A stretch of DNA of 61,495 nt, the filler included, from Hausera hauseri (lineage: Eukaryota), in assembly GCA_046269625.1 (NCBI GenBank). It is 12 parts of 12 records of this genome, joined end to end, with 100 filler letters (N's around TTAATTAATTAA, not from the genome) between each part and the next. Parts side by side here need not be neighbours in the genome. Positions count along the whole stretch, not along the records: positions 25,968 to 30,737 come from JBJURY010441912.1; 11 more parts are not named here. One strand, 5' to 3'. The notes under the pieces were generated by a model, which made no database searches, was not told the origin of the DNA, and worked only from the letters and a program-made list of their open reading frames with translations. How positions within the stretch are numbered: the stretch's first letter is position 1; every line of letters begins with the position of its first letter. The position numbers and the translations under genes are program-made. This document shows, piece by piece, positions 16,895-57,339 of this stretch.

Positions 16895-17364
16895 GAGCGA
16901 CAGCTACACCAACATGACAGCGCAGAACCTTGTCATCAGGGTGCGTTTTGTTTCCTGTTTTTATTCTTCTTTATTTTCTCCGTTACAAACATGAAGGTGA
17001 AACATCCTATAATTCTTAAGGACGGTTGTGAACCAGACAATTATGGACTTTGTACGTGGATGCAGCTATGGAAAAAAGAGAACTGACGTAGCAACTGATT
17101 GTAAGTTATGAATGTTTTTTTTTTTTTTCAACTTTTCCTTTTGCTTTGATGTATCTCTATGTGCGTGTGATGTTGTATTTTGTGACTTTAATGCGGCCAC
17201 TCATGGTATTTTCGTTTCGGATTCCTTCTTTTTTTTGCGCAATGCGGGCTACTAGTACGAGGAAAAAAAGTATCGTAGGATTTTCTGTCAACTCTAGGTG
17301 ATAGGATAGTATATAAACGACAGTTGCTGTGTGTGTTTGTACTGTCTTAGGTTGGTGAGGTTGG

Positions 17365-19467: not shown

Positions 19468-19884
19468 ATGCGGCGCTGCTTGATTTCTCTCTCTATTCGA
19501 CGAAGCATTAAATGCACTACAACACGATATGTCCCAGTCATTTCAGCATCACCTATCACATTCGCTGCACTGGCGCACGGTGGAATGATTCACTCACGTT
19601 TCTATTGCGACGCACCCCGTGCTGGGTAATACCTATTATCGAAGGACGACGTGCTGGCTCGTGTACTTGAGGTTGTGAAAAACTTTGAAAAGGTCGATGC
19701 GTCCAAGGTGACTGCTGAATCACACTTTGTGAACGATTTGGGTTTAGATTCCCTTGATGTTGTGGAGATGGTCATGGCCCTGGAGCAGGAGTTCATTCTC
19801 GATATTCCGGACCACGATGCCGAAAAGATTCAGTCAATCAATGATGCTGTGGAGTACATTTGTCAGAACCCAATGGCTAAATAA
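19468..19884 (+). CDS. ACP: Mitochondrial acyl carrier protein (kinetoplastid type) with one in-frame TAA at 19627-19629
   Basis: Arg-rich presequence MRRCLISLSIRR..., then *YLLSKDDVLARVLEVVKNFEKVDASKV...LGLDSLDVVE...EQEFILDIPDHDAEKIQS...QNPMAK, all in one frame. Confidence 0.92.
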
Positions 19885-20309
19885 TCTGGGTGCGATTTAA
19901 TGCTTCAGTGGATGATTGACAGAATGTAAGTAACCAAGATACTCAACTAATCAACTTACATAGGCAGTACAGACGTGATAGATGCAACCTGCGATATATA
20001 TATACAATTTGTTTTTTTTTTGTCGTACTGTGTTTGAAACATTCTCTGTGTGTTTAAGTGAGTAACCGAATTGTCTTTGTTTTTGAAATAAGATTGTTTT
20101 CTTTTATATGTATTTAGTCTGGCAACGTTATCTTGATTTATGTCTTTGTTGCTGACTTATTTTTTCCTATTGCTGTTATTACTCGTGGTTGATATGTTGC
20201 GGGTCAGTTATATATTTTTCTATTGTGTTTTACCTCTATTCAGAATCTCAGCATAAGACACACGCCCTCAAGGACACGATAGTGCACAACTTTCACTGGT
20301 GGCGGGATA

Positions 20310-20912
20310 ATGTCGACTTTTGGGTGCATTATCCCTGGACAGTTACCGATTACTGATTTTGCTTTAGTTGGCAACTACAAGTGGATTGCAACTGTTGGTA
20401 CGCTTCCTGAATTGTTTATTGTATTTCTTACTGGGGTTGAACCTCTGCCACCGGGGACGGCATTGGCTGTATTTGTTACATGCGAAGAGAATATTGGACA
20501 GTGTGATAGTGGCTACAGTAACAACGAAGCTTACAGTTATCTTGGTTGTGTAACCAACGAGTGTCCAAGCAGCATGCTCCGGACTCCTCTAGCAATATTT
20601 GACCGTGTTGGTTGTGGGACAGCCACGCGTGTCGGGTTATCAATCGAATCACAGGAAACAATCAGCAACCTTGGGGCTGTTTCTTCTCAGCCACTGGAGC
20701 AGTTTCGTGCAGCTATTGTGACCCGAATTGCTGAACGAATCACCAGGGATTTGTGCAGGTTTGTCACATCGTTTGCGAAACCTGTCGAGGGCGCCAGCGG
20801 CGGTGTTGAGGATGTTGTATGCCTCCCAATCTCGTGGGTAGACACCTGGCAAAGACGGCTGCTAACACGTTTACAGAAGGACTCAAACTACTTTGTCTCA
20901 CCAGAGGATTGA
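20310..20912 (+). CDS. Hikeshi/OPI10 (DUF775)-family protein
   Basis: FGCIIPG...VFLTG..PLPPG...LGCVTNECPSSM...VGLSIE...FVTSFA...LPISWVDTW...LQKDSNYF mirrors the Hikeshi pattern. Confidence 0.8.
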   Translation: MSTFGCIIPGQLPITDFALVGNYKWIATVGTLPELFIVFLTGVEPLPPGTALAVFVTCEENIGQCDSGYSNNEAYSYLGCVTNECPSSMLRTPLAIFDRVGCGTATRVGLSIESQETISNLGAVSSQPLEQFRAAIVTRIAERITRDLCRFVTSFAKPVEGASGGVEDVVCLPISWVDTWQRRLLTRLQKDSNYFVSPED

Positions 20913-21714
20913 GACGAAACCTTGGGCGTTGTGCGGTTTTAATGAGCTCTCATGTGAGCAACGCTGTGCGCGGAGTTGTGTTGTTTTTTTTTTTTCTTGT
21001 TCTTTGTGTTACTCTGGACGTCTTTTCTGAGGGAGGTACCTCCTCACCACTTTGTCACAATCTTTAAGAACGACTGTTTTTATCGTCGTGACTGGCACGC
21101 TCGCGTCTGCTATGTGTGCGAATTATTAATGTGTCTCCGCCACGTACTTTGGCTCACGTGATTGACTGTAGAGGTTGTATCTTCTGGTGCACGGTCTAAG
21201 ACTAATCACTGGTAATTCTGTTTTTTGGATACACACAATGTAAGATTACCAAGTTGAGTTAACCTTGTGGATCATTATACATAATGTGAAGAAATTGCTA
21301 GTTATATATGTGAACATTGTGCTCTTACCCGCTCGAATGCAGAGTATGCGACGTTGCATGCTTAATGGAACACGTTTCTTTCTATTGCTTGTTTCACCCT
21401 CCGCTACGTGAGTTTTTGTTTTTTCTGAGCACCTTCACTGACACAGTTTCTTGTATATCTTGCGCTTTTGTTGCAGCGTGCTTATCTGAGAACGCTTCTT
21501 GGAATGGTTTAGTTGTCACGGTTTGTTTGAGGGAACAAGTGTGTAGTTTTTCATAACACCTTGGCTTCACCTTATTTGAAGTTTTAAATAAGAGCGATTC
21601 TGCGGCGTGTGCTGCTTTTCAGACTGTATCATCGTATGTTGAGTCTCTGGGCCGGTATTGTAGCCATCAAATGAGTGGCTCGAACGTATTTTTACAAACT
21701 TCTCACTGAGCCGA

Positions 21715-21747
21715 TCATTTATGACACTCGCTGAGGCGCGCTTTCGG
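21715..21747 (+). repeat. 33-bp direct repeat of the contig start (14772-14804)
   Basis: TCA(C/T)TTATGACACTCGCTG(G/A)GGCGCGCTTTCGG at both ends of contig 4, 2 mismatches. Confidence 0.95.
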
Positions 21748-22399
21748 NNNNNNNNNNNNNNNNNNNNNNNNNNNNNNNNNNNNNNNNNNNNTTAATTAAT
21801 TAANNNNNNNNNNNNNNNNNNNNNNNNNNNNNNNNNNNNNNNNNNNNATCAATATCCCATGTATTGGATCTCGCGCATGCATGTGGAGGATCAATGCCAT
21901 CAAAAGATGGAGAAATATTACAACGCAGGAGGAAAGCACACGTATGTGTGTCCAGCGTGTAATATTCAAACTCACTGTGCGTACTTCGACTTTTATGAGG
22001 TACACAAACATCATATTGATCCGTTTACTCGGTCTAAGAAGATGATGGTTGAGCATTGCCCCACATACCCACACTACTACAGTAATAAAGTGCACAACGT
22101 TAGTGGTTGTCATAGTACAATGGAGCAGTAATATAACACCACAACGCTACACACTAAACGGGCCTACGCTTGTCCCGGTTATTGTTCAATATTTGCTGAA
22201 AACTACTATGAAGAATTTTATAATCTACACAAAGGTCACTTAAACCAGTTTAAGCGGACTAAGAAACAACTAGTTATGGATTACACTAGCAGCAGCCGCA
22301 GTCTTTCAATAACCAGTAATAAACGTCAGGCCTCAACAAGTCTTGACGACTGAATCAGAAACACTACCGAGCAACAGTATCAACAAGAACAATAACAAG

Positions 22400-25300
22400 A
22401 ACAACAACAACAGGAGCAACAGGAGCAACGGGATGCCAATCTGCCCAATATTACAGTTAAGTTCCATCTGAACAGATCGTACGTGGACATAAAAGCGAAC
22501 ATGTCGGCAAAGCAACAACAACAACGCCTTTAAGGCATGTTCCGCAAAATGTGCGCAACCGGTTGGAATGAGAAGTGGAGAAATTCTAACACTGCCACCA
22601 CCATCACTGCAAAGTGCAATATTATGCACTTGGAGAATTTGAAAATTTGGAAGGTGACAGGAAACAATGGTACCTGTCACATTGAGCTGCACCATATGCC
22701 AATGATTTTATTGCCGACGTAAGTGAAAAGCTGGAGGAGAAAATCGCCAACTATACCGAAAAGGGTAGTGGATGGAGAATTATAAAAATTGTCACCCTCG
22801 GTTTTATCATAACAAAGTCGAGTGACATAATATATTTGTCTGGCCGATCATTTATACCGACACCTGCAGCTCTGAAGCAGTCTCTAGCGTTATTGAATGT
22901 AAAAAATACTAACGATGAATACTGTTTCTTTACAGTATTCTGGTGGTATTGAAACATGATGAAGTGGACAGACATAGTGCATCTCGTCCAAAACAGTATC
23001 AGAAATATTTTTTCCAATTGGATTTCGATGAAAGCTGGATGCCGATGAAACTGAAAATCATTCCGGCTTTTCAACGGCGTAATCCAACACTGCTAATCAA
23101 TGTCTTCCGGTACAACATAATCGTAGAAATACCGGCGGATGAAGAAATTTACAAAAATCCTCATGTGGATATAATCTACCAAAGTCGGAACGCAAATGTT
23201 CGCTCAGTAAATTTATTATTACTGGAACAAAAAGAAATGTACCGTTACATTGCAGTGGCAAATCTGGACAGACTGCTGAACATGCAGCTTAACCATTTCC
23301 TCCAAAAATGGATACAGTGTAAATGGTATCCTGTAAATGTCTTCATGGATTCAGATCAGAAACAACATGGGCGAAACATGTGACTCTGTGAAGACAAAAT
23401 TCGTCAGGAACCACAATGTATGTCATGCCCATACAAAGAAACTCAGGTTCTCTGATTGGTCAAAAACAGACAGCCCGGCATATGTAGTATATGCCGATAT
23501 CGAAGCTATCTTACGACGGCACAACATATATGACCAAAAACATGTTCAAATTGCCGTCGGTATGTTGGTTGTCTAAATAAAAGCTGCAGGTCAACCTCAA
23601 TATTGTGTTTTCCACGGATGGAATTGTGTACGCGATTTCTTGCAGCAGTTGCAAACCATAGTGGAAACTGAAATCGCACCGTGGTATTGCGATAACAGCA
23701 CCATCAAACTTCTGATCTGAACAGATGAAGATGAACGCCTGACGTTTGCAGTCACAAATGAATGTTACCTGTGCCACAAAATATTACCGTTTGATACTCA
23801 GGAACAGCTCGTACAGGATCACGATTATTATACCGGTTGATATTTCGGAGCCGCATGTAATTTATGTTAATTGGCAAGGCGTGTGCGGCCATTCCTACCA
23901 ACTGTATTTCATAACTTCAAGGGTATTGATTGTCATCATATTTTGAAATAGACAATAAGCGGATTTCCACACTGGGAACTATCCGTAATTCCGACTACAA
24001 CAGAGAAATACCTGTCACTGTCTGTACGTATAAACCGGTTTCAGATATGATTCCTTGATTCGCTGCAATTTCTCAATGATTCTCTGGCAAAGTTGGTGAA
24101 TGCCTTTCCAGATGTGCCGCTAACAATGACTCAGTTCCTTCTACATATTGTGCGTAGCAAAGGCATATTACTGTATGACTTTGCGATATAGTACGAGCGG
24201 CTCCAGGCGGCAAATGAATTACCACCGCAATGGCCCGATATAACAGAAGAAGAATATCAGAGAGCGCAGTCGTTTTGGACAAGGCTCGGTTGTAGAAACC
24301 TGTTGGAGTACATGCTTCGCTATCTGAAATTGGATGTGTACCTGTTAGCCGATGTGTTTTATCATTTGTAGCTAAAGCATTGACAGAAGATAGGCTGGAG
24401 CCGCTCAACTTTTACTCAGTACCAGTAGTGAGTTGGGCATCAGCTCTGATGTCATTGGATTTGGATATGGAGCTGTTGCAAGACCCGGAAATGTACCGAA
24501 TGTTTAATGTTGTTATTCGTGGCGGCATGACGTTCGTCAACAAGCACCACGTAACCAGTAATTATACCACATCACTGTTGTATATCGAGATTAATAACCT
24601 GTAGGGCTGGGCGCTTTCACAGCCCTTGCCGTACGGTTCATTCGAATGGGTAGTTGACAAACAGGACCTGGACACATTACTGCAAAGTCTGCCGAGATCA
24701 AACACGACAGAAAACAGCTCAATCGGGTACCTGATGGAAGTCGATCTCGTGCGACTAGATGAGCTGCATGACTTTCTGGATGAACTGCCGGTCACTCCAG
24801 TCAGCTGAAGGTCGCCGGACTCGAAGGTGAAGAAGCTGCTTATGACGCATGAACCGAAACATAACCGCACAGTTCATTGGCGTCTGTTGCAATTTTACAT
24901 ACAGTTGAATGTACGCATTACACGGCTACATGGCGCAATCCGGTTAGCACATAGTCCGATATTCAAGCCGTATATCAGTCGGAATTCGGAAAAACGAGCT
25001 GCAGCTTGTACAAAGTTCGAAAAGGACTATTACAAGCTGAAAAACAATTCCCTTTAAGCAAAAACAGTGCAGAATCTGAAAAAGCTGCTCAATGTACGTC
25101 TATGCAATAGCGAAAAGTGGTTGGTCACGTACACGAGTATGGCGCAGTTCAGGCGATCAATGCACATTGCCGATGGATTGGTGGCGGTGCATTAAACAGG
25201 GAAGAAATTGTTCTGGACCGGCATAGTTACATCGTACAAGTGGTATTGGATCTGAGCAAGTTGCGGATGTATGAGCTGCAGTATTGCGACTTTGCACGTT

Positions 25301-25828
25301 AGCGGCAAATGTTTGACGGCTGCAATTTTGACATAATTGCCGGTGACACAGATGATTTTTTCCTGCGGCTGAAAAAAGACAATCGCAAACAGCTACTGCA
25401 GCAGATGCAATCAGATGGACTACTAGACACGTCCAATTATCCACCGGATCATCAGTTGTACAGTAGCACAATCCCCAACAAAATCGGCTGCTTCAAGGAT
25501 GAAAGTGAAGGTCGGGTTCACTATCTGGAATGGATATTTCTACGGCCAAAATGTTATAGCCTTTTAACTGACGGTGTACCGAAAATGTGCGCTAAAGGAG
25601 TTCAGTTGGCCCAGATGGAAATAAACCACGGTGATTATCGCCGTATCTACGAAGAAGAAGAAGGACAATCAAAGGTTGTTGTGTCACAAACGATCATCCG
25701 ATCGATTGAGCACCAACTGTATAAGGTTACCAATACAAAAGTCGGTTTATCATGCAATGATGATAAGCGTAAGTGGGTGTGCGAAATATGAGTTGGGCAT
25801 ACGGACATTGGCGTTTGGAATAAAATAA
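22400..25828 (+). pseudogene. Polinton/adintovirus protein-primed family B DNA polymerase with endonuclease-VII-like zinc insert, decayed
   Basis: EKGSGW, LNVKNTNDEYCF, VYADIEAIL, CYLC...DHDYYTG...AACNLC, FHNFKGID, FLDSLQF, IRGG, YIEINNL*GWA, YYKLKNNSL, AGDTDDF, IGCFKDE, LRPKCYS, KGV, DDKR. Confidence 0.92.
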
Positions 25829-25969
25829 CACACGTTTAGTGTTCACAAACAGTTCAGTGCAAACATGNNNNNNNNNNNNNNNNNNNNNNNNNNNNNNNNN
25901 NNNNNNNNNNNTTAATTAATTAANNNNNNNNNNNNNNNNNNNNNNNNNNNNNNNNNNNNNNNNNNNNAA

Positions 25970-26420
25970 TACGATTATTCATTTGACAATAAAGGACAAT
26001 ATGAAATTAATCCGTGTCAAGCAAAAGTTATTGCCATTAAAATACAGAGTGGATTCGTTGAGCAAGTGACCGACGTTGTGAAGTTAGTCGGTGTCGTTCT
26101 TGGCTCAACAAACTTCTATGAGGAACAAGGTGGAAAAGTGGCAGATTTTGGCAACTTGATTGCTGTTGCTGGTGACTTTGAGGTGACAGATGTGCAATTG
26201 TTTAGTGGATACGTGTTACACATTGGTCATGTGCAACAGAGCATACTTCGAATTGGAGATTTGGTGAATTTGGATGTTCATGGGTCTCGACGTAGTGCTA
26301 CAATGCAAAATCACACTGGTACACACGTTCTCAATTACCCTTTGATGGAAAAATTGAATGACCCTAACCAAGAGGGATCTCTCATTGCACCAAAAAATTA
26401 CGATTTGATTTCAAATCAGA
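25970..26420 (+). pseudogene. AARS: Alanyl-tRNA synthetase internal fragment (putative LTR cargo)
   Basis: GVVLGSTNFYEEQGGKVADFG...FEVTDVQ..SGYVLHIG...RRSATMQNHTGTHVLN...QEGSLIAP/KLRFDF. Intronless and decayed. Confidence 0.9.
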
Positions 26421-26576
26421 CAAAAGACGCTGTACAGATTTAATCGTGCTGAATATTGGGTGGATTAATAAAAATGTAATGTTTCTTACCATTACTAATA
26501 TAAAGGAATATGTGCCACTTTTGAGGATAAATTCCACAGTAGCCGAAGGAAAAAGAATACAGGTAAGGAGGTCGGT

Positions 26577-26675
26577 TATCCCGGAATTTGAAACCCGCTG
26601 CTGCGAGGCTGAGGACCCGGCCGCCCACCCTGCGCCAGTGGGTCAGACGGCGCCTTTCGCTTCAGCCCCGCAACA
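26577..26675 (+). repeat. GC-rich right LTR cap A (ends ...GCAACA) upstream of the gag leader
   Basis: Homologous to 44829-44926; imperfect reverse complement of cap B (30445-30553). Confidence 0.8.
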
Positions 26676-29600
26676 CACCCCCAGGCACACTACCTCTCCC
26701 TTTTCTATCTTCTTTTTCTTAAATAATAAACATGTCCATACGCACAGCATTGCATTTACACACTGCGACCATTCACACTTTCATTTCTTCCATACTCCAC
26801 TCCTTTGATTTCTACCTTACATATAACGGATCTCTAGTACCCCTCGCTGGAACTCTACAATCTTCTTCAACCCACATCTGCCTCCATATTCATTTCCGTA
26901 TCCGTGATGTCATGGATTCGTCATCCACAATTGACACCATAAACAAACTTACTAAACAATAAATCCCCGTCATCCACTTACCCAAACACAGCGCTTCCAA
27001 CATCCCTACACAACATACCCTCTTCACTCATTCACCCTGCACCAAATATTTTCCCGATAGCCAAAACTCTACTCAAATTTGGTTAAAACTGCACCAATTT
27101 TTGTTCCAACGTCGTCGACTCTTTAGCCAAAGCCAACAGCCTCTTTTTCCACTTACCAGCTTCCATCAAAACTAAAATCACCAATATAATCTATATCCTT
27201 CAGCACGCTGACACATATACCCAACTCTATAATGCCATTCTCAAGCTTACTGGGCCTTCAGTCGATTAAATCATTCAAAGGTTCTTTAACGACAACGCCA
27301 TGGGCCTTAAGAAGCCTTCTGAATTCCTACGCACGTCCTTGTCTCACCTCAATACCTTTGGCGTAATCTCTGATCACAGTCCCGAGCTTCTTCGTCGTTA
27401 CTTCTTAAATGCATTGCCCCTTCGAATAAGAGCTTTGCTAACCGTGGTTGAGGACTTCACGGCTCTTGACAAGCTAGCCAAAGTGGCAGACAAGGCATAC
27501 GAAGTACTGCACTCACATGCAGCACCAACTATTTTTGCAGCATTTACAACAGATCAACAAAAAGAAAATGCAATGCTGCAGCAACAAATTGCGCAATTAC
27601 GCACAGAAAATGAAACATTGCAAAAAGCAATCAACAACATTAACGACAAACTAAACGCATTAACACTACTTCGACGGGGTTTTTCTAGGCCTGCTTCCCC
27701 TAATGTATTCAATCAAATCCTAGCTAAGGCAACAACCAGCAAAAACATAGCCGACACATTTCTTTTGTTGTTTTCACGTTGAAAGCAACAGTGGTCACTC
27801 TAACAAAATAAAACATAAACTTTCATATAGGCACCGGAACAGCAATCTCTCTACTGCCACCAACACAACACATACAACACAAATACACTTCACAAAAGCA
27901 ACTATTTACTGCGTCCGGCGAACCTTTACAAATCTTTGGAGTTACCACATTGACATTCACCCTCCCACACTTCACAAACACATTCACATGGAAATTCATA
28001 ATAGCTAATGTACACACACCTATATTTGGTTCAGACTTTCTGCCCCACTGCAATTTACTTGTAGATTGCAAACAATGTTCCTTAAAGAGCGGAAATAATC
28101 TTAATCAAATCAGCAGCATTTCGATGACCACCCCGGCGATCGCGTCTAGTAAGTCAATACTAAAGAAAACGACTACCGGTCTGAATTATTTTTATAATCA
28201 TTTATTATATAGAAATTTTTATTACGGTGACAAATGCGATATTGCCAACTGCGTAACACCATTACTAATAGCACAGCTGCCAACACCATCTTCAACACGA
28301 ACATCCTCCACCAAATACCATTTAGTCGCAACACCTTGTCTATAACTCATACCTCAATTGCATCCTGTTATGATGCATCGACACCATCGGATAATTTGTC
28401 ATCGCTGCCTTCTGATCTACAGCAATACATTTCGTCCTCCTGCACGCGTCTGTTGCAGAAGGACAAATCATTTGTACCACCCCAATCCACCTTCCATCAC
28501 ATAGTAACAGCACATCAGAGACCAATACGTCAAAAGGTCCGCCGGCTATCGCCTTGTCGCAAACAGGCAGTGGAAGCTGAGTTCCTTGAACTTAAAAAAT
28601 CAGGCATAATCAGAAGATCAAAATCCTGCTGGTCTTCACCACTGCATATGGTTCCAAAAAAGATGGCACCTTTCACCCATGCGGTGATTATCGCCAACTT
28701 AGCACCATAACAACAATGGATGCCTACCCTCTACCATTAATCAGCGATATTCTACACAGGCTCCATGGTTCGACTATGTTTTCCTGCATTGATCTACACA
28801 AAGCATACCACCAAATTCCGGTGGCCTCAGCAGACATTCCGAAAACAGCTGTCATTACACCTTTTAGCCTTTTTGAATAGTGCTTCCCAGACCTTCCAAA
28901 GGCATATCGATACAGTTCTTTCATGTTTAGACTTCGCCTATCCCTATATTGATGACATCTTAATTGCATCCTCTTCCTGGAAGCAGCACTCCGATCACCT
29001 ACGTTTAATCTTCCAGCGCTTGCACCAAAACAACTTGCAAATCAATTTCTCTAAATGCTCCTTTTATTAACATAAGGTCAGCTTCCTAGGACATGTTAGT
29101 AGCTTCTCTGGACATTCACCTCAGCCAGACCACATCACACAGCTCAAAAATATACAAATACCACGAACATCAACAGAGATGCATTCTTTCCTTGGAACCC
29201 TGCACTTTATTCATAAGTACATTCCGCACTGTTCCACTCTAACCGCTCTATTTGCATCACAAAGCTCTGACAAGAAGAAACAGCCTATTCAATGGACCGC
29301 CAATTTAGTCAATGCTTTCGATCCTCTCAAAGACAATTTGAAAACTGTGAAAATCCTAGCCTATCCAGACTTCCATGCAGAACTTTTCTTAACCACCGAC
29401 GCATCCATGACCGCTGCATGCGCTGTCCTCTATCAAGTTAAAAATGGATCCCATGAGCCATCGGAATTCTTTTATCGAAAATTCACAGCACAAGAGCAAA
29501 GATGTTCTACCTTTGACAGAGAGTTGCTTGCAATGGTCCTTGCCGTAAAGCACTTTAAACTTCTACTAACTGCACGAACTTTTACAATACAAAATGACTA

Positions 29601-30444
29601 TATGCCCTTGCTTCAAATTCTCACCGTGAAATCGCCTTCTCCAAGTCAGGAGAGGCAAACATCGTATTTGTCCACATTTAACATCTCCTCCATCCCCTCA
29701 CAACAACCTGCTTTCTCCTTTTACAGCACTTCCTCCATCAAACACCATTTCTACTTCACCAATCTCTCCATCTACACCTTTCATCATTCCAACCTCTTGC
29801 ATACCACCCTCCAACTACTTTCCTTTGCCTTCTCCATCTTCTCTCTCTCTTTCGCCTTGTACCTCTTCGCCGTCTTGTCTTTCTCTCTGTCCCTCTCTTT
29901 CCACACCTTCCTCATCTTCAGTGTTTTCTTCCCCCCTTTCTCCTCACACATCATATTTTACTCCTTTCACTTCCGCTTCACAACTTATTCTTCTGTTTAC
30001 CTTTCCCTATCCCTTTTCCTCTCTGTACTACTATTTCTGTTTCATCTTCTACTTCCACTCTCTCATACAATTCAATTCTAATCTCTACTCCAACTTTGCT
30101 TTCTCTTTCTTTATCCACCACTACACATTTAATCATTCCATCGTCTTCAACAATCTCTCTTCCTACTTCACCTTCTTCTCTTCTTTCTGACTCGTCTTGG
30201 CATGACACAACGCTAACAACAAAATCTGACCATTTTTTCCCCAACTTCAAACTCTGCACACAAACACACAGCACAAAGACAAAACACGCAGAGTCACATT
30301 CAGAAAGTATAACAAAAAAAAATCGTTACAAGGTACCAAACGTCTTGTCCACACTATGACCGACTGACAGACACTTTTTCGTTTTGCGGTTTTTTCTCTT
30401 TTATGCTTACCCTTCATAGTTTTCACTTTGCTACGGGGGGGTGG
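26676..30444 (+). mobile_element. CsRn1/Kabuki-clade Gypsy internal region (gag-PR-RT-RNaseH; integrase deleted), decayed
   Basis: KPSEFLR gag, WSSPLHMVPKK, YPYIDDILIAS, SFLG, LTTDAS...STFDRELLA; poly-G PPT at 30435-30441. Confidence 0.92.
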
Positions 30445-30553
30445 TGTGGTGCCCACAGTGGCCGGCGCCCTCTGGCCCATTTGGTTGGACACGGCCGGGA
30501 GTCCGCTGCCGCCTCGTTGGGCCCATAGGCGGGTTTCCGATCTCCCGCCTCAT
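30445..30553 (+). repeat. GC-rich left LTR cap B (starts TGTGGTGCCCAC after the poly-G PPT)
   Basis: Homologous to 57232-57339 (minus) and 38084-38103 (minus). Confidence 0.85.
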
Positions 30554-30737
30554 GGAATTCATGCGGAACATTCGTCAGATGAACTGCAATCACAATAGAA
30601 TTGATCACGTCGATGCGTCCGTTTTTGACGGCATGAATTTATTGCACTTGATCAATTTCAATTGGAATAAATTGGCTGCCGTACCGTCGTTGATCAATCG
30701 CTGTCGGTATTCAAAGAAATTATACGCTTCTCATAAT
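30552..30737 (+). pseudogene. Leucine-rich repeat gene fragment (putative LTR cargo)
   Basis: MEFMRNIRQMNCNHNRIDHVDASVFDGMNLLHLINFNWNKLAAVP...KKLYASHN: typical extracellular LRR units. Confidence 0.8.
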
Positions 30738-31769
30738 NNNNNNNNNNNNNNNNNNNNNNNNNNNNNNNNNNNNNNNNNNNNTTAATTAATTAANNNNNNN
30801 NNNNNNNNNNNNNNNNNNNNNNNNNNNNNNNNNNNNNTAAAATTCGGTAGCTTCCAATCTCTGCAATACATTGTGAGTAATGATATTTTAGTTCGTTCCG
30901 TCGTTCGCATAAATTTTCAAATTCAAAAGTTGATATTTTACAAATCAAATTTATTTTACAACATTTAAAAAAACTTTTTTGCATTACACTGAGCTATCGC
31001 GCATTTTAAACAATCAACGTCATTTCATTAAATATAACATTCCACGTCATTTCATTAAATGTAACATTCTGGTCTTGTCTATGAAACCCCCCCCCCGCAA
31101 CTGCTCCACGTCACAGTCCTCTTGTTACTATAAATAATTATTCCACAAACCACAGATGTCATTGAAGTAAAGAAACATGTTTTTTTTAAACTATTGAATA
31201 ACAAACAAAACTTGGTTATTAATAGCGGGTTTCTCGAAAATGTAAAAGAACTAGTCAGAAGATTAACTATCGATCGTTATTACATGGCAAATCGTTATTA
31301 CATTACAAAATGTTAGTAGATGGTGATGTAACGGATCCTGTAAATATAAATTTTGGTCAAAAGGATCCTCAAAAATTAGGCTACTTAGAGTTGGTTGTAA
31401 ATGTGAAAATAGATTTCCAAAATATGGCTTTGAAAATTTCCGGCAAAAGATTTATTATCTTTATGAAAATTTTGATAATAACGTACCGGCTAAAAGGTCT
31501 TATGCTATGCAAATGGTATGGAGAGCGGTTGATAATATTAGCTTACTCCAAGAAAACCATACGGATAAACGTGATTCGATTTGTACACCACGACATAGAC
31601 ACGTTAGAAATATTCGGTGTAGAAGAAATATATAGCATTCATATGTTAGTATATAAAGTGACCGAGAGCTATATTTGGACCTTGAGGATGTCGTATTTGT
31701 CGTATTCCCTTGGCACTACAGTCATCCTCTTAGCGCTTTAAACATTTTTCACAATTACTGATCGCTCGT

Positions 31770-33440
31770 TCCTTCACCATTCAAACGCACCATAAACCTC
31801 TTGTTCACGTAATGAACATGAAACAACCATCACTTCGACAAGAACGCCATATCTTATACCTTTCAACATTCAACTTTAAAATTTTTATATATCTGGTACG
31901 GACAATTTAATAGCTGTTTTCTTATCGCGGTCAGTCGGTGCAATTAGTGTCACTTTTATATTCTCCAAAAACAATTAATCCAAGATCCCCTTCAGCATAT
32001 ATTCTTAATACAAATCTGTCCAAATCATAGATGGCGTAGCCATGGACATTTCGACACCTGGGCAACATTTGCCAATTTTAGCACCTTCCCTTCAACAAAC
32101 AACATTTAACAATATTAATTCATTGCACCACCTAGGTTCGAAAGCTACATTCTGCGTCCTCAAACGCCGCGTAACGTGGCCATAGATGAGGTATGACGTA
32201 CAGTATTAGATTAGGCAATGTGTGGCTTGCCAAAAATTTAAGGTAGCTAAACATTTCAAGCCACTTTTATTCCATTTTCCCTGCACGGCCCGTTTTGAAT
32301 CAGTTCACTTAGATATAATCGGCCCATTACCTTTTGATAACAGCCGCCAATTCATTTTAACAATGATGGACCGCGCATTTCGTTAGCCTGAAGCTGTTCC
32401 TTTGCGCTCCATCAATATAGACTCCATAGACGATGCCTTCATAAAGATTTGGATTAGCCGGTTCGGTTCACCACGTTACATAATTACAGACCAAAGTCCT
32501 CAATTTGAATCAAACCTTTTCAAGTCCTTAGTCAACCGACTGGGTAGAAATCACATACACAGAACTCTATATCATCCCCAGTTGAACGGCTTATTGGAAC
32601 GTTTTTACCGCACTCTTAGAATTTCGCTAAAAATTATAGCTGAAACACATACGAACTGGACTACCATCCTTCCTTTCGTATTACTTGGGTGGCGCAACAT
32701 ACCGTCTGCTATTACCAGTTGCGTACCCGCTGAAGCACTTTTTGGTACCACAATTCGTGCACTCTTCGAACTTACCGATTTGATCAACACACCTACTGAT
32801 GAAACCATTAGGTCTGCACAAAATCATTTTGTCCAGTTAAGTCAGGACTCCTTCTGTAAAATAATACATGGTGACAAAACGTACTTACACGACTCGCTAT
32901 TTAATGCAAAGTTTGTGTTCTTAAAAACCCATTCACCTTTCGGATTCCAACCAAACCATTTATGACCATTTAAAGTCCTCAATATTACCTCACACAGTTA
33001 CGATACTAAAAAAGGTAAAGATCAAAACGTGCATATAACTAACGGTAAACCCGCATTCTTCGTTAATGATACACCGGATCCTTCAGCCGAGTCCACACAA
33101 ACCTTTCTTGACTCCTTCAATTCTTTTTCCATTATACTTACACGACAACCTGCTACTCCAAAACCTGCATCAACTCAAAAAGCTGCGCTAAACGACATAC
33201 TGACCAGTTCTCAAACTGCGGGCATGTCAAATCAAAATTTAACTTCATCCCAATCACATCAGCAGACAATCAAACAGCATGTTAAACAAAGCAAGACTGT
33301 TACCTTCAGCAAATATAGCAAAGAACAAAATTTCGATAAAATTCAACATCCCGTTCATACAAAGCCTTAATAGTTCACAGACACTATTCTTTTTGGCAGT
33401 TTTGTTTCTTCTTATTTCGCCTTTATAGTGTTATTTTTGT
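31770..33440 (+). mobile_element. Gypsy pol 3' half (RNaseH end, integrase), decayed
   Basis: CVACQ, VHLDIIGPLP, WISRFGSPRYIITDQ, YHPQLNGLLERFYRTL. Confidence 0.9.
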
Positions 33441-33979
33441 CACGGAAGTGTGGATTGTGGATGTCTTGGATAACAATAAATTCCAGAAAGACGAAGGTTT
33501 TAGTAGATAATAACAAATTCATAAATACGAAAGTTTTAGTCAACTTTGTATTAAAATTTTCAATCAATTTATAAAAAATCAATTTCAATAAACTATCAAC
33601 GTACACATATAATTTTATATACAGTTCATACTCGATAAATATTTTTTTTTGGCAGAACATCAATTTATTATTGACAATTAAAGTCCGATGCATGTCTTTG
33701 CTTTGACGTAACAAAATAAATAACAGTTATAACCAATTTAACTTGTTGTTTTCCCAATACTGAATAGTTCGTTTACAACAATTATCCTTAAGTTTAGACG
33801 GTAGTTAAATTGTATCAATATTCTGGCAGCCATTTATAAAATCGTTTTTATCTTAATTTTTTAGGTAACACACCAAATTGTTAAATATTTCGGAAATACT
33901 CTCTAGCTAATACATTAACTTGTTATTGTCGCTTGTTTATTTCATTCTTTCCAAGTTTGTCCAACAATACCATAACGAA

Positions 33980-36900
33980 ACACATCGACACATGCTGGGG
34001 AAAATCTCTCCACCGATCCACTGACCCCTGCAGCGCAATCTACACTTTAAGCACTGCATTACCACCTCCCCTCCCCCCGTGGCAAAGGAGAAAACCATAG
34101 GGAAGAAAAATAGACGTGAGCGTCATAATAAAAGTACGTGCTGGTACCTATTCAGTTTTGGTATGTGTCAGACGTTGGATTCCATCTATGAACTTCTCCC
34201 TGCTGTAAGTGCTAAACGTCACCCTGCGTAACCTGTTAGATGTTACTGGTGCTTGTAGAATTGTTTGATGGAAAGATGCTGTAGATTTTGTGGTGTTTTG
34301 GCAGAATGCTTCATGAAGAGGTGAGAGTGGAGAAGAAACTGAAGAGTGGGGTGGAGCAAGCGGAAAAGGCGAGATATGGAGGTGGAAGCAAATCGTGCGA
34401 TGGCGGTGAATGAAGTATTGGGTGTGCATGCAATGACTGCAAAGTAAGTGGTGAATGATCAGTAAACGTTGTCGGAAATGAAAAGGACTGATTGTGACTC
34501 GATTGCTGCAACTGCTCAAAATTATCGAGGAAATTAGATAATGGCTCGCGGAAAGAGAAATTAAAGTCAGGATTTGAAACAAGGCTGCTATCCTGGTCAT
34601 CATCAACGAAGAATGCTGGATTAAGATTAGAGATATGTACATTTTGAGGTTTGTCCTTGCGTAAAATAGTAGCAGTGTGCGATCAAAGGTTTAGTAGTTT
34701 GTAAGGGCCAACGTATTGAGGCCGAAAACCAGACGATGAAGGATCCTTCAGCCATACAAACTTAGCTAAGTATGTCCTCTGGAATATAAGACTTATCTTT
34801 ATTTATAAGACGGCAAAATGCGTTTGAGTTTACCTCTACGAAGCGGGACTGTTCTGCACGAATGACTTCATCTGATGGACTTTCATCCAGATTTGAGAGC
34901 TAAAATAGTGCACGAATTGGTGTCCCAAAGAGAGCATTAGCCGGGGCACAACAGGTGGTAGTGGATGGCGTGTTGCGCCAACCAAGTAGAACAAGAGGAA
35001 GAATCGAAATCCAATTACAATTGTTGTTTGACAGGATTTTTAAAGAAATCTTCATGGTTTGGTAAAATCTCTCAAGAAGGCCATTTGCTTGGGGATGGTA
35101 CGGCGTAGTATGAAAGTGAGATATCCCCACATGCTTCACTAGAGATTTAAAGAGATGAGCTTCAAATTGCGGACCCTGGTCCGTTATGATGTGACGTAAT
35201 AAACCAAAATGGCTGACCCATATCTTGATAAATGCATTTGCTACTGAGTCAGTGTTGGTTGATCGAAGCAAAACGGTTTCAGGCCAGCGGGAAGCACGAT
35301 CCATCATGAATGAGACGTATTGATAGCAGTTGTCGGATGGCAAAGGACCAACAAAATCCAAATGCATAGTGGCAAAACGGGACGTACAAGGGAAGTGGTA
35401 AAGTGGTGGTTTTAGATCTTTGTTGACCTTGTGTTGCTGGCATGCTACACATCCCTTGACCCAGATCTGTACATCTGTACGCATAGTTGACCATACAACG
35501 TTGCGTTGCAGTAGGCGAAATGTGGCTTTTGAACCCGGATGATGAAAAGAGTGAAAGTGGTTGAAAGCTGTCTTTTGTAGCGATGGAGCAAAAATGATTT
35601 TTTTATTAGTCGAGTTGGATTTGTCGTAGGCGATGCCATTGATGATCTTAACAGATTTAAAAGTTTGGAAAATGTCAGATGATGGCTGAGTGCTTCTCAG
35701 GACCTCAGAGGAGAAAATTGGCTGAACTGTAATTAAATTAACCGACCGCGAAAGAAAATCCGCTACTACATTTTCGGTGCCTGAAATATATTTCATGGAA
35801 AAGCTAAACGTCGACAGGTATGATATCTGTTGTTCTTGTCTGGGTAATGGCTGTTTCAAAGTCATTTTATGAAGTAGAGGCTTGTGGTCGGTTTGTATGG
35901 TAAATTGACGTGAAAGAAGCAAGTGCTTGAAATGTTTTACTGCTAAAACTACAGCCAAGAGTTCACGGTCAAATGTTGAGTATCGGCTTTCCGGTTGCGT
36001 AAGCTTTCGAGAATAGAACTCTGATAGTTCATCGATGACATTGCATATTTGGTGTAATATAGCACCAGTTGCTGTAGTTGAGGCATCGGTAGTTAATATT
36101 AGTTCAGCGTATGATTTTGGAAAAGCCAAGATTTCCACAGTTCTCAGACCTTCACGAAGGTGATCAAATTGGTTTACTAGATAGGAAGTCCAATGGATTA
36201 ATTGTCTTTTCTTCCCAGATGGGAGGCGTGCGAACGGTGCCGTTAGTTCGGAGAAGTCTGGGATTTATTTGTGTACGAAATGCAATGTCCCTAGAAAACT
36301 CCTCATATGGGTAGTTGTAGTTGGCAACGTTACATTTTCTAATTGTTGTAAGCTATCAGGCTGGGGCGAATGCCCTTCAGGAGTAATAATGTGGCATAGG
36401 AAGTTTACGCGTTTTTGGAAGAAATTGCATTTGTCGAAATTAATTTGCAGGTTACTTTGATGCAATCTGTGGAAAATAATTCTAAGATGCTTATGATGTT
36501 GTTTTATGGAGCTGGAAGCGACTAATGTGTCATCTATGTATGGGTGTGCAAAATTATGTCCAGAAAGAGCGATGTCAATGTGGCGCTGAGGGGTCTGAGA
36601 TGCGCTACGAAGGCCGAAAGGCATGAAAATGTATTCATAAAGACCAAACGGTGTGATGACAGCAGTTTTTGGAATGGCATTAGGTGCAACAGGGATTTTA
36701 TGGTCGGCCTTGTGCAGATTAATAAAAGAATAGGTATTGATGTTGCTGAGGCTATGAAGAATGTCCTTAATGAGTGGTAGTAAATAGGCATCTGTAATAG
36801 TTAGAGTGTTTAATTGTCGATAGTCGCCACATGGCCTATAGGTTCCATCTTTCCTTACCACTACATGAAGAGGAGAGACCCATGGAGAATTCGATCTCCG

Positions 36901-37983
36901 AACGATGCCAGACCTTTCCAGTTCATTAAACTTCTGGGCCACAGCTTAACGTCTGCGTGTCGACAAAGGTTTGACCCTCTGTTTGATAGGCCTCTGATGC
37001 TCCGTTACTATATGATGATAAGTTGAGGGTGAGAGCTTGAAGTTGATATCTCTTTTAACTATTCGAAAGCATGATGTTGTGATATATGATCTAAGATCGG
37101 AGTCTAAAGATAAGAATGATTGAGGCGTATCATTAGAAAGAACAGCTGCAGTGACTGAAGAGAGCAACTGGCATTGCTACTGTCGACACCTACTTTGGAT
37201 TTCTGTTTCAGAATATATATAGGAAGTTATCGGAAGTTTTTTTAATAGATGACGAAACGTTCAACATGTTTCCAGATGAGTGCAATGAATTGCTTACTAG
37301 ATTATCTGCGAGACACATGTCTGAAGTTGAAATCGAGTTTCTGCTGAAAAGACAGCTGTATTTGCAATCTACCAATAAATCATGTCCGGCAAGAAAATCT
37401 AAGCCTATTATGGGAGATTTAATGTTGGTCACGTGGAACTTTCAAACAAACTTATCTGGCAAGTTGGCAAATGTGAAAGTCAGTTCCGTCGTTCCTGCAA
37501 CATGCAACGGTTGACCACTGGCAGTTAAATGCGGTGGACGGGAAATTATAGTGGATGTAGGGGTGAAAGACAACGGAAGGAGTGAAAAGGCAGCTCCTGA
37601 GTCTACAAGGAAGTCGATATGTAAAGTATCACTGCCTAAAAGTGCGGCCTTCAACAGAAAGACTGCAGAGGCGGTGTTGAAACGGCCAGAAAATTGAGCG
37701 ATGTTGCCTGCGCCAGAAAGTGCCGTAACATCTGACGGCATTATGAGTTTTTTGGAGGATTTGGAGGAAAGGAAGAAGAGGAAGAAAAGCTAGGAAATTT
37801 TTTATTGTAATGTCTACAACCAGGCACACATGATCTGGCCTTTAACTGATATTTGTTGTAGTATATACAAATAGGGTTATTTACAGCGTATCGCTCACTA
37901 AAGAATCGACAGCTCAAGAAACATTTCCTTGCTTCCTTTTGAAAACGCGTGTGATAAAAACAAGTCATGCGTCCGCCAGGTGA
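33980..37983 (-). mobile_element. Near-complete CsRn1-type Gypsy gag-pol with PPT (34065-34078) and start of 3' LTR
   Basis: Tandem CxxHx9Cx3C fingers, FLVDSGA, WVSPLHVV, PFGL, YIDD, TDAS, DRELLA, MHLDFVGPLP, YHPQANGLLERF; PPT GGGGGGAGGGGAGG. Confidence 0.93.
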
Positions 37984-38083: not shown

Positions 38084-41000
38084 CGTCAGCGGTGGGCACC
38101 ACATCAATCCCCCCCCTGGGCAAAGTGAAAACTATAAAGAAGAAAATAGACGGAAAGAAAAAATCGCTAAGCGAAAAGTGTCTTTGTCAGCTGGTCTTAG
38201 TGTAAACAAGACGTTGGGTGCCTTATACTGATTTTTCCCTGCTATACATGCTAAACATGACTCTGCGTGGTTTGTATGTATGCGATGTGTTTGCTTGCAG
38301 AGGTTGAAGTTGGCGAAAAATTGTCAGATTTTGTAGTGAATGTCGTGTCGTGCAAAAACGAGTCAGAATGACGAGAAAAAGAAGGTGAAGAGGGAGAGAG
38401 ATGGTTGGAGACGGATGGTTTAAAATATACAAGAGAGTGTTAAAAGACGATGGAGTGACAAAAGGTGAAGTAGAGGATGAAGGAGGAGAGACGAAAATTG
38501 AAACAAAAATTGGAATTGTGTTAGACGAAAGAGTAAAAGTAGAAAATGAGACTGAAGGAGTGGTAGATAAAGGGAGAGAGGTAGGAATAAAAGTATAAGG
38601 TGCTGAAAATGATGAAGCAGAACTAGAACCAGAAGAAGGAGGTGAAACTGGTGTAGCAGCAGACAAAGGAACAGCAGGTAGTGTAGAAGTGAGGAAAGAG
38701 GTTGACGCGTCGATTGGTGAAGTGTCGTCGATAAAGAAGGCGGGCTTTAAGTTGGTAATGTGTACCGTAACTTCTTTGCCGTCTTTAGAGATAATAGCAT
38801 TATGTGAATGCAGCTGTATTAGTTTATACGGCATCAGATACCTCGGCTGAAAAGCGCACGGTGTTTGATTTTTTAGCCATACGAAGTTTGCCGAATACAA
38901 GTCTTCGGGTAAATATGTTTTGTTTTTGTGAAGTATTCTGCAGAACGAACCTTTGCTGACCGTAACGAAGTGATTTTGCGCCGCCCGTATCGTTTCATCT
39001 GTAGGAGTGTCGTCTAGGGCAGTTAGTTCGAACAATGATCGTACGGGTGCTCCAAATAGGGCTTCAGTATGTGAGCATCCCGTAGAAGTCGACGGAGTGT
39101 TCCTCCAGCCAAGAAGAACAAACGGAAGAAGATTCATCCAACTAGTGTTGGACTCTTCAAGGATTCTTAGTGACGTTTTCAAGGTTCGGTGGAAGCGTTC
39201 TAAAAGGCCATTCGATTGGGGATGGTAAGGTGTAGTACGTATTTGATGGATCCCCAATCGGCTAACAAGGGATTTGAACAGGTTGGATTCAAACTGTGGA
39301 CCCTGGTCCGTGATGATAAAGTGAGGTGATCCAAACCTAGTAATACATGTGTGAATAAAAACGTCAGCTATAGTATCGGTGTTCGTGCTCCGCAGAAGAA
39401 TGGCTTCTGGTCATCGCGAGGAACGGTCCATCATGGTGAGGATGAATTGATGATCGTTATCTGGAGGAAGACGGCCAACGATGTCGATATTCAGGAACTT
39501 GAAATGCGATGTTCAGGGAAAGTGGCACAGTGGTGGCTTTAAATGCTTAGTTCTTTTGTATTTTTGGCAAGCCACACATTCCTTAACCCATGCCTGCACA
39601 TCAGAACGCATTGACGGCCATACTACTTTTCGATGGAGTAAACGAAAAGTGGCTTTAGCACCAGGGTAGTGCAGCGAATGTACGCTAGTAAATGCTTGCC
39701 TTTGCAATGATGGTGCGAGAATTATTATGGAATGACCTGGTTTGGAAGTGTCTAAAGCCACGCCGTCAACAATTGTGCAAGACTTGAAAGAATTAAGCAT
39801 GTATTGAGGTGGATGGTTCTGTTGAAGTTGAGCTTGTGTAAAAATCGGTGAAAAATTAATCGAACTAACCGACCTAGATAAAAAGTCGGCAACAAAATTA
39901 TTAACCCCGTTAATATGTTTCATGTCGAAGTTAAATGTCGACAAGTATGATATCTTTCGTTCTTGTCGCGTAGAAGGATGTTTCATAGTCATGACGTTAA
40001 GTAAGGGCTTGTGGTCGGTTTGTATAGTAAAATGGCGAGTGACAAGTAGGTGGGAGAAATGATTTAAAGCAAGAACGACGGCCAATAATTCTCGATCGAA
40101 CGTTGAGTATCTAGTTTCATGGGATGTTAGCATACGAGAGAAAAATTCTAGAGGTTGATTTTCTTCTTTGTGGATTTAGTGGAGTACAGCACCTACTGCA
40201 GTGGTTGAAGCATCAGGCTTGGGGAAAGCGAAAATGTCGACGGTCTTAATTCATTTGCGTAGCTTATCAAACTTATCAACCAATTCAGGTGTCCACTGGA
40301 TTGGCCAATGTTTTTTGACGCCACTTAAGTGTGCAAATGGTGCTGTCAATTCAGAGCAATGTGGTACATATTTATGTATAAAGTGTAGTATACCGAGGAG
40401 GCTGCACATTTCAGTGGTCGTACGTGGTAACTGAATATTCTTAAGTGTTTCAACTCGGTCTGGTAGAGGAAAGTGGCCGTCTGGTGAAATAACCTGGCCT
40501 AAAAAGTTGATGCGTTTTTTGAAGAAATGGCATTTGTCGTAATTGAATTGGAGATTATGGTAATTAAGGCGTTGGAATATTGCGCGAAAGTGTTCCTCGT
40601 GTTGTTTGCCTGAAGAAGAAACGACCAGAATATCATCAGTGTAGGGGTGCGCAAACGGAAAATCTGAGAGAATTGAGTCGATATATCGCTAAAAAGTCTG
40701 TGCGGCATTTCGCAAACCGAATGGCATAAACAGGTACTCGTAAAGGCCAAAAGGAGTAGTGACATCAGTTTTTTCTATGTATTCGGGTGCCACTGGTATT
40801 TGGTGGTATGCTTTGGCTAAATCGGTGGTCGAATAAATGGTAGTTGAATTAAGGCGATGCAAGATATCCTTTATGAGTGGTAATGGGTAAGCATCCATGA
40901 TAGTCAAATTGTTTAACTGTCGGTAATCACTGCATGGTCTAAAAGTTCCGTCCTTTTTTGTACAACACGTAAAGGTAAAGATTAAGGAAATTTGGAACGG

Positions 41001-43807: not shown

Positions 43808-44690
<883 letters not shown>

Positions 44691-44828
44691 ACGCAAACGG
44701 GAAGAAGAGAATTTTCCATAAACACTAAAAAATTCAACGACAAATTCTGCACATATTACAAAAACAAAACTCGTCCTATCAGATCCGAAAATGACCGATG
44801 GATAAACATTACATGCAAAAACCTCGAC

Positions 44829-44926
44829 TATCCCGAAATTTGCGACCCGTCGCGGCGAGGCTGAAGCCCCGGCCGCCATCCTACACCATTGGGTCAGGCG
44901 GCACCGCTCACTGACGCCCCACGACA
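44829..44926 (+). repeat. Right LTR cap A (ends ...ACGACA)
   Basis: TATCCCGAAATTTGCGACCCG...GCGAGGCTGA...CCCGGCCGCC...TGGGTCAG...CCCC..ACA, homologous to 26577-26675. Confidence 0.8.
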
Positions 44927-50664: not shown

Positions 50665-52996
50665 CACTACGAATAGGTCTTTGGTGCTGCGTTATGATGT
50701 GATGAAAAGTGCTGTTTGTATGTGTAAAGGTTCGGTCCTTCTGGATTAAGCGGGGGCATGAAGTGTGTATGTATTGTCGTAGACTTGCAGGCAATTGTGA
50801 GAGATTGGGTGATGGTGATGGCGTTGAGTCAATATGTACAGTGACGAGTGATGTTTGCGAGTTATTGAAATGAAATGGAATTTGATATAAGATAGTAGTA
50901 TTAAAAATAGTGTTTGAAGTGGTAATTTTGTCTAGGGAATGTACCGAACCAACGCAATCGTAGTTGTCAAAACCAAATCTCGACTGAATATCGATATTAT
51001 CATTAAACAATTTACGAAATGAAAAATGCTTGTTGAAGAAATTTGGAATACTTACAGGATTTTTGACTATAAGCTTCCGCGGGAAGATCGTTTGTGCATT
51101 AGCGGATGTACTATTTATTCGCTCTGTAAGATATCCAGTAGTGTTACGTTTCAAATATTGTTGTTTGCAATAAACTAAATGATTATAATGCGATAAGAAG
51201 TCCGAACCTAGGATTGCCGTACGGGCGTTAGCGACGGTAAACATCCAATGAAATGTGGAATAAAATTTTGGTAAGGTGAACGACAATTTAGATGTACCTG
51301 AAATGTCAAGCGGTTGCCCTGAAGCTCTAAATAACGATTGGCTTTGAGTGGAGAATTTTGTACAGGGAAAGTGAGTGGTAGCAAAGAAACCGCAGCGCCT
51401 GTGTCGATAAGGAAGTCTATGGATTGAGTTGTTGGTGTGTTTATCGAAGCCTTTAGTGTGAAGACTGCAAAAGAAGTGTGTCGGCAGGTAGTATTAGAGA
51501 AGTTGCCTCTGCGAGACTCTGCCGTGAGTACTGGCGGCGAAATTAGTTTTTTTGGATTGGTGAGGTCGGCCGACTATTACTAGGGAAAATAGAACGTCTG
51601 TCGGCAGTATTGTTAGCGTTGTTCTTATAGTTGCAGCCTGAACGACATTTCTGAGCGTGGAATCTAAATTTCGCATGGTAGATGCAAACGATCTTGTGTG
51701 AATGTAAATTTGGAGTGTAATATCTACACCCTAAACATCATTTATTAGCTTTATTATGAAATTTGCTATGATAATAGCACACAAAAGATCGTGTAGGCAA
51801 TGGTGACCTGTTTCTGGAAACAGAACGAGTATGATTATGAATAGGAACACTTCCTCGTAGTAATAAAAGATCGTTCAACCTATTATTAACGTTATTTATT
51901 GTCTGTTGTAGTGCTAAATTTTTAGCGCGTACTTGGCTCAACTGTTTCTCTATTGTTGTATTGAGTTGATTGTCGCTTGTTGTGAACGCTGCTGATACAA
52001 TTGGTTGAGAATTCAATTGTAGCACTTCATGTGCTTTATCAGCCAATTTCGCCAATTTATCCAATGCCGTAGATTCCTCGACAACGGTAAAAGTGCCCTA
52101 ATTTGTATAGGCAACGCGTTTAAGAAATATCGTCGCAGAAGGTCTGAATTATGCTGCCTAGTTTTACCTAGCGTTTGTAGGTGAGTCAACGACGTACGCA
52201 GGAACTCAGAAGGCTTTTGTGTTCCCATGGCGTTATCATTAAGAATCTATGGATTATGAAATCCATACACGGTTCGGTAAGTTTTAAGACTGCGTAATAG
52301 AGATGTGTGTACGGGTCGGATTATTGAAAGATGTCTAAAATATCGTGAAAAGAAGTCTTTACTGTGTTTGGTAAGAGGCAAAGTAAACTGAGCTTTAGCT
52401 GACGGATCAGTAACGTTGTTAGACTGCAGCCAAAGGTTGTGAAAGCTAAGCCAGGTTTCCCTGGATTTTTCGTGATCGACAAAATATTCTGTGCACTGAG
52501 AAGAAGTGTGTTTGGCTGGCGGGATGGAAGGTGTATAACTGTTGAAAGTAGATGGCGTGGTTACGGTCGTTGGTTTTTGGTGAAAAGTGAATAATAGTGG
52601 TATAGAGGTAGTGTTGTCAGTAGTGTCAATGATGGATAAAGTATCAATTCCACCACGTATGCGCAAGTGTACATGGATAACGATATGTAGGGTTGAAGAA
52701 AAGAAAAAATTGCAAACATTGGCATTAACTACTGGTAGATTATTAAGAGTTAAGTAAAAGTTAGAAAATGCAGTAAAATATTGTACATATTTGTGCAAGG
52801 ACAGTGTGTCTATATGGTATGCTATATTGTGCGTCAGTATTTGTGAGTTATTTATTAAAAAGGAAAACGAGAGGGGTGTGACAGGCCCTAGTAAGTGGTG
52901 TGGCAATGGAACAAACCATGGTGTGGGACTCACTGGCATTGGACAGACGGTTGGGTAGTCTGTCACGCTGTGATGTACACGGAACTCAAGAGTATT
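50665..52996 (-). mobile_element. Gypsy LTR end, leader, gag and protease fragment
   Basis: KPSEFLR, CYYHSKF, FLIDTGA, ILGSDFL; GC-richer end ...ATTGCCACA near 52899. Confidence 0.88.
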
Positions 52997-57231: not shown

Positions 57232-57339
57232 CATAAGGCGGGAGATCGGGTCCGACTATGGCCCCGACGCGGCGGCAACGGATGCCCTGCCGTGCCCGAC
57301 CAAATGGGCCAAAGTGCACCGGCTGCTGTGGGCACCACA
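57232..57339 (-). repeat. Left LTR cap B at an apparent integration boundary (no PPT upstream)
   Basis: Minus TGTGGTGCCCACAGCAGCCGGTGCAC...GGCCCATTTGGTCGGGCACGGC...CCGATCTCCCGCCTTATG; upstream flank unrelated to pol or PPT. Confidence 0.85.

Follow-up and report, generated by a model that had tools for sequence, protein, structure and literature searches.

To our knowledge, end-to-end pairing has been tested in few retroelements only and is short there; the CYC segments of Ty1 are about 14 nucleotides long. These complementary segments, CYC5 in the 5' gag region by the primer site, which itself lies within the gag frame, and CYC3 at the 3' end, must pair for initiation of reverse transcription, according to those portions of the sources that deal with circularisation (PMC4974528; PMC7969010). 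In HIV-1, part of the gag coding sequence base-pairs with the terminal region at the 3' end, an interaction presented in part of its source as kept despite sequence divergence (PMC1976439), and Ty3 is stated, in the relevant section of PMC11381356, to circularise through tRNA. There are further elements, too, in which a primer site is not evident (PMC6934838; PMC7175516, in part). In LTR-mediated retroposition, as outlined in portions of PMC5131818, intron-free host-gene pieces become joined to an LTR element and replace its internal ORFs at microsimilar sites anywhere.

The locus described here shares with Ty1 the complementary segments at the gag start and the 3' end; unlike Ty1, it belongs to a Ty3/gypsy element whose match covers 70-100 bases from the first LTR base and is known from sequence alone, and in a sister lineage the match spans the polypurine tract. 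Whereas HIV-1 pairs the far end of U3 together with R (PMC1976439, in part), the present family would use the tract along with the U3 end next to it. With the self-priming of Tf1, as covered in part of PMC7175516, it would have in common an RNA-RNA duplex at the primer position, and with LTR-mediated retroposition it shares intron-free pieces, although its cargo sits behind a fixed LTR head rather than at variable sites. The CHCC Gag motif, the TGTGGYG LTR start and the pol order are common to the CsRN1 clade, as far as excerpts of its descriptions go (PMC2582038; PMC3601003); unlike that clade, the family occupies a separate branch and has an imperfect or missing Trp primer site, a ubiquitin-like Gag start and an LTR filled with cargo. 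The long inverted match is present in this family and absent from the canonical CsRN1 relatives tested. In a mostly open literature, we found no description of a long inverted match, a panhandle or tRNA-free priming in such elements.

The window, meaning the whole stretch of 61,495 nucleotides that was analysed, consists of 12 short contigs with N linkers between them. One Ty3/gypsy family is represented by broken copies, alike at 62-86%, on six of these contigs, and the window holds no complete family element. One element is contained in contig 25968-30737 (Table 1), in the order alanyl-tRNA synthetase scrap, cap A1, gag, partial pol, polypurine tract, cap B1 and leucine-rich-repeat scrap.

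Table 1. Features of the Ty3/gypsy family, in coordinates of the window
Feature	Position	Strand	Basis
Host-gene cargo, broken intron-free alanyl-tRNA synthetase piece	25968..26571	+	Pfam PF01411 E 3e-17; low run depth
Cap A1, GC-rich, complementary to cap B, open in the ubiquitin-like Gag frame	26572..26675	+	alignment, duplex, junction
tRNA-Trp primer-like 12-mer	26573..26584	+	8/12 against published CsRN1 motif (PMC2582038)
C-run after ACA, opposite the polypurine tract in the duplex	26676..26690	+	position
Broken gag, ubiquitin-like domain first	26720..27780	+	profile/Pfam matches
Broken pol with protease, RT and RNase H; integrase largely missing here	27812..30360	+	domain matches
Polypurine tract	30435..30444	+	sequence; equivalent place in copies at 38104, 34068
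Cap B1, U3 head of 3' LTR, TGTGGTG start, terminal ATG in cargo frame	30445..30554	+	
Host-gene cargo behind cap B, leucine-rich-repeat piece	30552..30737	+	Pfam LRR_8 E 8e-5
Cap A2, CDC5L-like Myb piece before, gag after	44824..44926	+	
Cap B2 = 5' LTR start, unrelated flank in front	57232..57339	-	
First 20 bases of a further cap B after polypurine tract, contig end cuts off the rest	38084..38103	-	
A3, second-type 5' segment, contig end cuts off the rest, gag frame	52899..52996	-	
B3, second-type U3 head after polypurine tract	33955..34066	-	

The remaining contigs are of mixed character. On contig 14772-21747, intron-free genes sit close together on a single strand (RCC1, Hikeshi-like, peptidase A4, acyl-carrier-like), and it gives the impression of a kinetoplastid, or some other protist, that was assembled along with the animal. 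By eye, 8320-14671 and 21848-25867 read as decayed Polinton-like contigs with ATPase-, integrase- and polymerase-B-like stretches, and 4113-8219 as the decayed remains of a piggyBac-like transposase in minus orientation. Long ORFs on the minus strand (655 and 489 residues), which have no Pfam match, lie in 1-4012 and 57552-61495 and adjoin gag-like sequence of other LTR elements. Family members stand tail to tail on two contigs (31735-37900 and 48647-52996), in the latter of which 482 bases form an 86% inverted repeat; a 152-base piece of a Polinton-like polymerase contig (24224-24374) recurs, 82% alike, at 48798-48647 beside a family member and is possibly cargo.

The relationship to CsRN1 rests on several landmarks. 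RVT_1, RT_RNaseH, Integrase_H2C2 and rve were matched in sister copies of the window, with the pol order PR-RT-RH-IN and a DDE integrase; the rve integrase sets the family apart from DIRS elements with inverted terminal repeats, which have a tyrosine recombinase instead of a DDE integrase. The Gag motif CX2HX9CX3C (from PMC2582038) was read by eye near 46015-46070, and the TGTGGYG start of Table 3 in PMC3601003 is found in B1, B2 and the copy at 38103. A protein search returned a distinct group, P0001-P0042, at 42-75% identity, of which a few long rows are more distant and P0001 and P0002 are intact relatives. In a quick tree of 46 rows, arbitrarily rooted and with an SH-aLRT of 99, without bootstrap, on the split, the window copies, P0001-P0042 and the sister lineage G001 fall on one side and 18 canonical-type rows on the other; the window family was not nested among canonical CsRN1 members in the Pol tree. 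The cap-B pattern had 0 matches among contigs of metagenomes and viruses. Scans with single proteins found nothing in viral or genome contigs, and a metagenome protein scan yielded distant elements only, two of which served as controls.

An earlier note on this DNA had described two LTR caps as imperfect inverted repeats of about 100 bp, and its coordinates and motifs for them are correct. The inverted repeat itself holds for A1 and A2 against B1, where it is modest, and is weak against B2. The reverse complement of A1 agrees with B1 in 70 of 121 columns (~58%; global z 4.5, local z 5.5), and the similarity goes beyond that of shuffled sequence, with none of 1000 dinucleotide shuffles reaching the score. 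Inverted A2 reaches z 5.3 globally and 6.2 locally against B1; against B2, which is 82% identical to B1 over 110 bases, both A copies reach no more than z 2.2 globally (20 and 24 of 1000 shuffles). Under the harsher local scoring applied first, the values were 2.6 (28/1000) for A1-B1, 6.1 for A2-B1, 0.2 for A1-B2 and 1.9 for A2-B2. The same-orientation A-B match was never significant in the shuffle test, and in a blind scan of the whole stretch (19,716 windows, both strands) inverted A1 and A2 were the top two matches to B1 and B2 after the B copies themselves. The last anchor of the note, GCGGGTTTC, is common to A1 and B1, whereas A2 and B2 differ there; in run X1, another letter occupies 82% of the depth at 26591 and 53% at 26592.

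A second cap type had been thought to repeat the pattern more weakly, and this did not survive: A3 (52996-52899), cut by a contig end, against B3 (from about 34066) was equalled by 106 of 1000 shuffles globally and 743 of 1000 locally, and the two agree in about 9 of 10 terminal bases only. Extension of the match on the tract side is not significant in the window family, and pairing of the C-run alone gave p<=0.05 in 0 of 9 pairs. Neither cap contains an Rfam family or tRNA gene, so that derivation from a whole tRNA, 5S or SRP RNA is unsupported; a cap-like end at 43339 was set aside, since it lies in a gene scrap and has no clear match to either cap.

A polypurine tract precedes B in three copies, an unrelated flank precedes B2, and B opens with the CsRN1 integrase motif; on the sequence, these landmarks mark cap B as the LTR's U3 head and its element as a CsRN1-related Ty3/gypsy. 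To this extent the description of both caps as LTR caps stands; cap A, on the other hand, looks like a segment internal to the element, where primer site and gag begin, and is probably not an LTR cap, because it always enters gag (3/3 copies in the window, in the frame of the ubiquitin-like domain), shares the gag frame and has no flank junction at its ACA end among the loose-end rows listed. In the stretch 26530-26720, compared with run contigs, there is a sharp junction at the left edge of A1, 26572, where 25 X1 contigs and 2 X2 contigs diverge, with a 3.6-fold depth step. One base after this junction begins the primer-like 12-mer, in the same register as in the canonical relatives L023, L025 and L031; measured against the published motif rather than the host's tRNA, it matches at 7 of 12 positions in A2 and 10 of 12 in the best X2 contig, the first base never matching.

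Other family copies carry different intron-free scraps (Myb/CDC5L-like, ARID, innexin), and from the cargo, innexin included, the host is an invertebrate animal. Behind B2, 3 kb of gene scraps are joined to gag without cap A, and in the copy at 38084-42200, too, cargo adjoins gag and cap A is absent. Depth, read for the shape of junctions only and not for copy number, is high over the element in run X1, drops ~100-fold right behind cap B (from 21,035 to 186) and is ~6-fold lower before cap A; the family is therefore abundant and its cargo not shared. Cargo frames continue in frame into cap A or gag in all three cases (26380-26675, 44584-44926 and 54210-54130 on the minus strand), the last open frame of the alanyl-tRNA synthetase piece reading through into cap A, and the terminal ATG of cap B (30552; 57234 on the minus strand) opens cargo frames of 62 and 117 codons (2/2), which suggests translation from the LTR head through the cargo into Gag.

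Gag starts with a ubiquitin-like domain at 26720-26915 (+), 44973-45170 (+) and 52876-52637 (-) and in the sister contigs L103-L107; the profile of the Gag start matches ubiquitin (Pfam E 2e-5 for L104), and the domain ends R-x-x-GG in intact-looking copies. By host proteases, Gag could be freed from any upstream fusion.

The sister lineage comes from G001, a bin labelled bacterial that contains many eukaryotic retroelement contigs; such LTR-retrotransposon contigs occur in many prokaryote genome bins (L021-L075), dozens of them in G001. Its U3 head is ~45 bases long, has no counterpart in cap B by blastn, and terminates in a pyrimidine tract and AG in 15 of 17 tract-linked copies; of 15 newly inspected heads, 14 lack a tract in front. 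Many heads (L110-L123, L129, L131, L163-L176) have a splice-acceptor-like end, often with a longer phase-0 open frame after it, and the sister element may trap host exons.

Five of six gag-start segments of this lineage match the head and the preceding 30 bases in inverted orientation (median z 3.8-5.2), each at p<=0.05 against 16-17 of the 17 heads, compared with 0-2 of 17 in the same orientation; the sixth, from L107, does so against 3 of 17 heads only. The segment windows were chosen after the match was seen, and in the blind scan of 18,360 windows that followed, L104-L106 came top for most of six heads. The match runs on for ~30 bases past the LTR boundary, where the sequence occurs at the 3' end only; taken by itself, the tract side reaches significance in three of six segments and the head in four of six. 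The segment lies inside an open frame of 51-146 codons in all five contigs with upstream DNA, and its distance to a shared AATAAA, by eye, is 47 bases in L105 against 49 from the end of A1. No block is common to the 5' upstream DNA and the DNA behind the heads. In six ordinary elements, three of them with an intact Trp primer site, no match between leader and head was found (z -1.3 to 1.3), and among control LTR ends one of six reached z 2.7. The complementarity thus recurs, in other letters, in a sister lineage with an unrelated head, and is absent from six ordinary elements.

Folding in silico indicates which strand would pair. For the four A-B pairs, duplex z is -6.3, -4.8, -2.5 and -4.5 in the sense strand against -3.1, -4.4, 0.1 and -2.4 in the antisense strand; by z, the sense strand pairs more strongly in all 5 pairs from the window and in 20 of 20 comparisons in G001, the bias that RNA pairing with G-U would produce. 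The cap hairpins by themselves are no better than shuffles (|z| <=1.5 in 12 folds). The idea of a panhandle finds support in silico in the predicted sense duplex and in the matching layout in the sister lineage, with the correction that it would more likely close the internal region than loop out the cargo. Covariation among copies did not appear in the X1 variants: among 27 variant rows, a pair becomes G-U in 8, is lost in 8 and is improved in 3, and variants do not avoid paired positions (14/70 against 10/34, Fisher p 0.33; p 1.0 against B2). Coding constraint on A is not convincing, with 11 of 31 variant places at third positions of the gag frame in a hand count. Cognate A-B pairs come from one element only. 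The copies are related, so that counts over them are not independent.

On balance, we think it moderately probable that U3 head B and gag-start segment A pair in the genomic RNA, forming a long imperfect duplex that circularises the internal region. In the sense genomic RNA, A at the gag start would anneal to B near the 3' end; the duplex would close the internal region rather than the cargo, bring the 3' end close to where the minus strand is begun, and guide both initiation and first-strand transfer. It would do so in an element whose LTR, filled with changing host-gene cargo, has no repeat to rely on, and the same geometry would give fixed cargo joints next to both caps. A duplex between the 5' and 3' regions is the simplest reading because two lineages with unrelated heads keep a sense-biased segment at the gag start.

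We infer that A is internal rather than U5, and the converse arrangement, in which A is the U5 end of a long B-cargo-A LTR with 100-base terminal inverted repeats, ACA the integrase end and the C-run a primer site for the element's own polypurine-tract RNA instead of tRNA, appears improbable. It draws on the ACA ends of A1, A2 and A3, which resemble an integrase end and fit the CsRN1 3' motif in 5-6 of 7 positions (PMC3601003, Table 3, in part), on terminal 9-10 bases that covary between the two cap types, and on ATA or TTA at the equivalent place in the sister segments. Against this, 26675 has no depth step in two runs and no junction among the best 12 of 97 loose-end rows (A1 being diverged near that end), in contrast to the sharp junction at 26572; A lies within the gag frame; the canonical LTRs of L023, L025 and L031 end ATA or TTA directly before the Trp site, so that an ACA upstream of A is not needed; and profile searches of G001 found 35 heads against 5 segments, all five on gag contigs and none with flank (0/5), although the segment model, built from those five, is less sensitive than the head model. 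If B-cargo-A units instead moved as Pack-type DNA transposons with the caps as TIRs, an idea that the earlier note had raised, the inverted ends and gene scraps would fit; the window, however, holds no B-cargo-A unit, with or without a target-site duplication, no transposase is linked, both caps fall at retroelement landmarks and the ends are only 58% alike, which with the 0 of 5 sister flanks leaves such mobility unsupported and very improbable.

The duplex might also be the primer itself: genomic RNA cleaved where the U3 head terminates would have that end annealed to the upstream border of A and would from there prime the minus strand without tRNA. The head 3' end indeed faces the upstream edge of A, the site of the junction, the pyrimidine tract and AG of the sister heads may be where the RNA is cut, Tf1 offers an example of self-priming (PMC7175516, in part), and an exact Trp site is absent from the G001 gag contigs (2 unrelated hits in G001); yet those contigs, with only 0.1-1 kb of upstream DNA, may miss the primer site, and the window family keeps a Trp-like 12-mer and a head that ends ATG, not AG, so that we give self-priming the same low standing as a U5 role for A. 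A functionless relic of fold-back template switching, arisen once per lineage and decaying, would account for the low identity, the X1 variants without covariation, the loss of the match in L107 and in the second cap type, and cap hairpins no better than shuffles. It accords poorly with the finding that two lineages whose heads are unrelated have the segment at the same place with respect to the ubiquitin-like domain, with its retention inside coding sequence and with the sense-strand bias, and we hold it to be a shade less credible again. Pairing of U3 head and gag start in a circularised RNA is thus the reading carried forward.

A bolder scheme, offered tentatively and rather unlikely as a whole, would extend this pairing to a widespread and hitherto undescribed Ty3/gypsy subclade that would have lost tRNA priming and the fixed R: the RNA 3' end, tract and U3 head together, would anneal to the gag start, prime the minus strand and dock the transfer, while the front end of any host mRNA would be copied in at one fixed joint of the LTR, its translation giving a leader that the ubiquitin-like domain frees from Gag.

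The inverted match is real, and it is probably a variant of known genome circularisation. End pairing over 70-100 bases, rebuilt with different letters in two lineages, would offer a handle on how LTR elements whose repeat is mostly borrowed host sequence are copied, and it would explain the fixed joint for the uptake of host genes. Furthermore, the inverted match can serve as a signature in searches for a subclade that would escape LTR finders.
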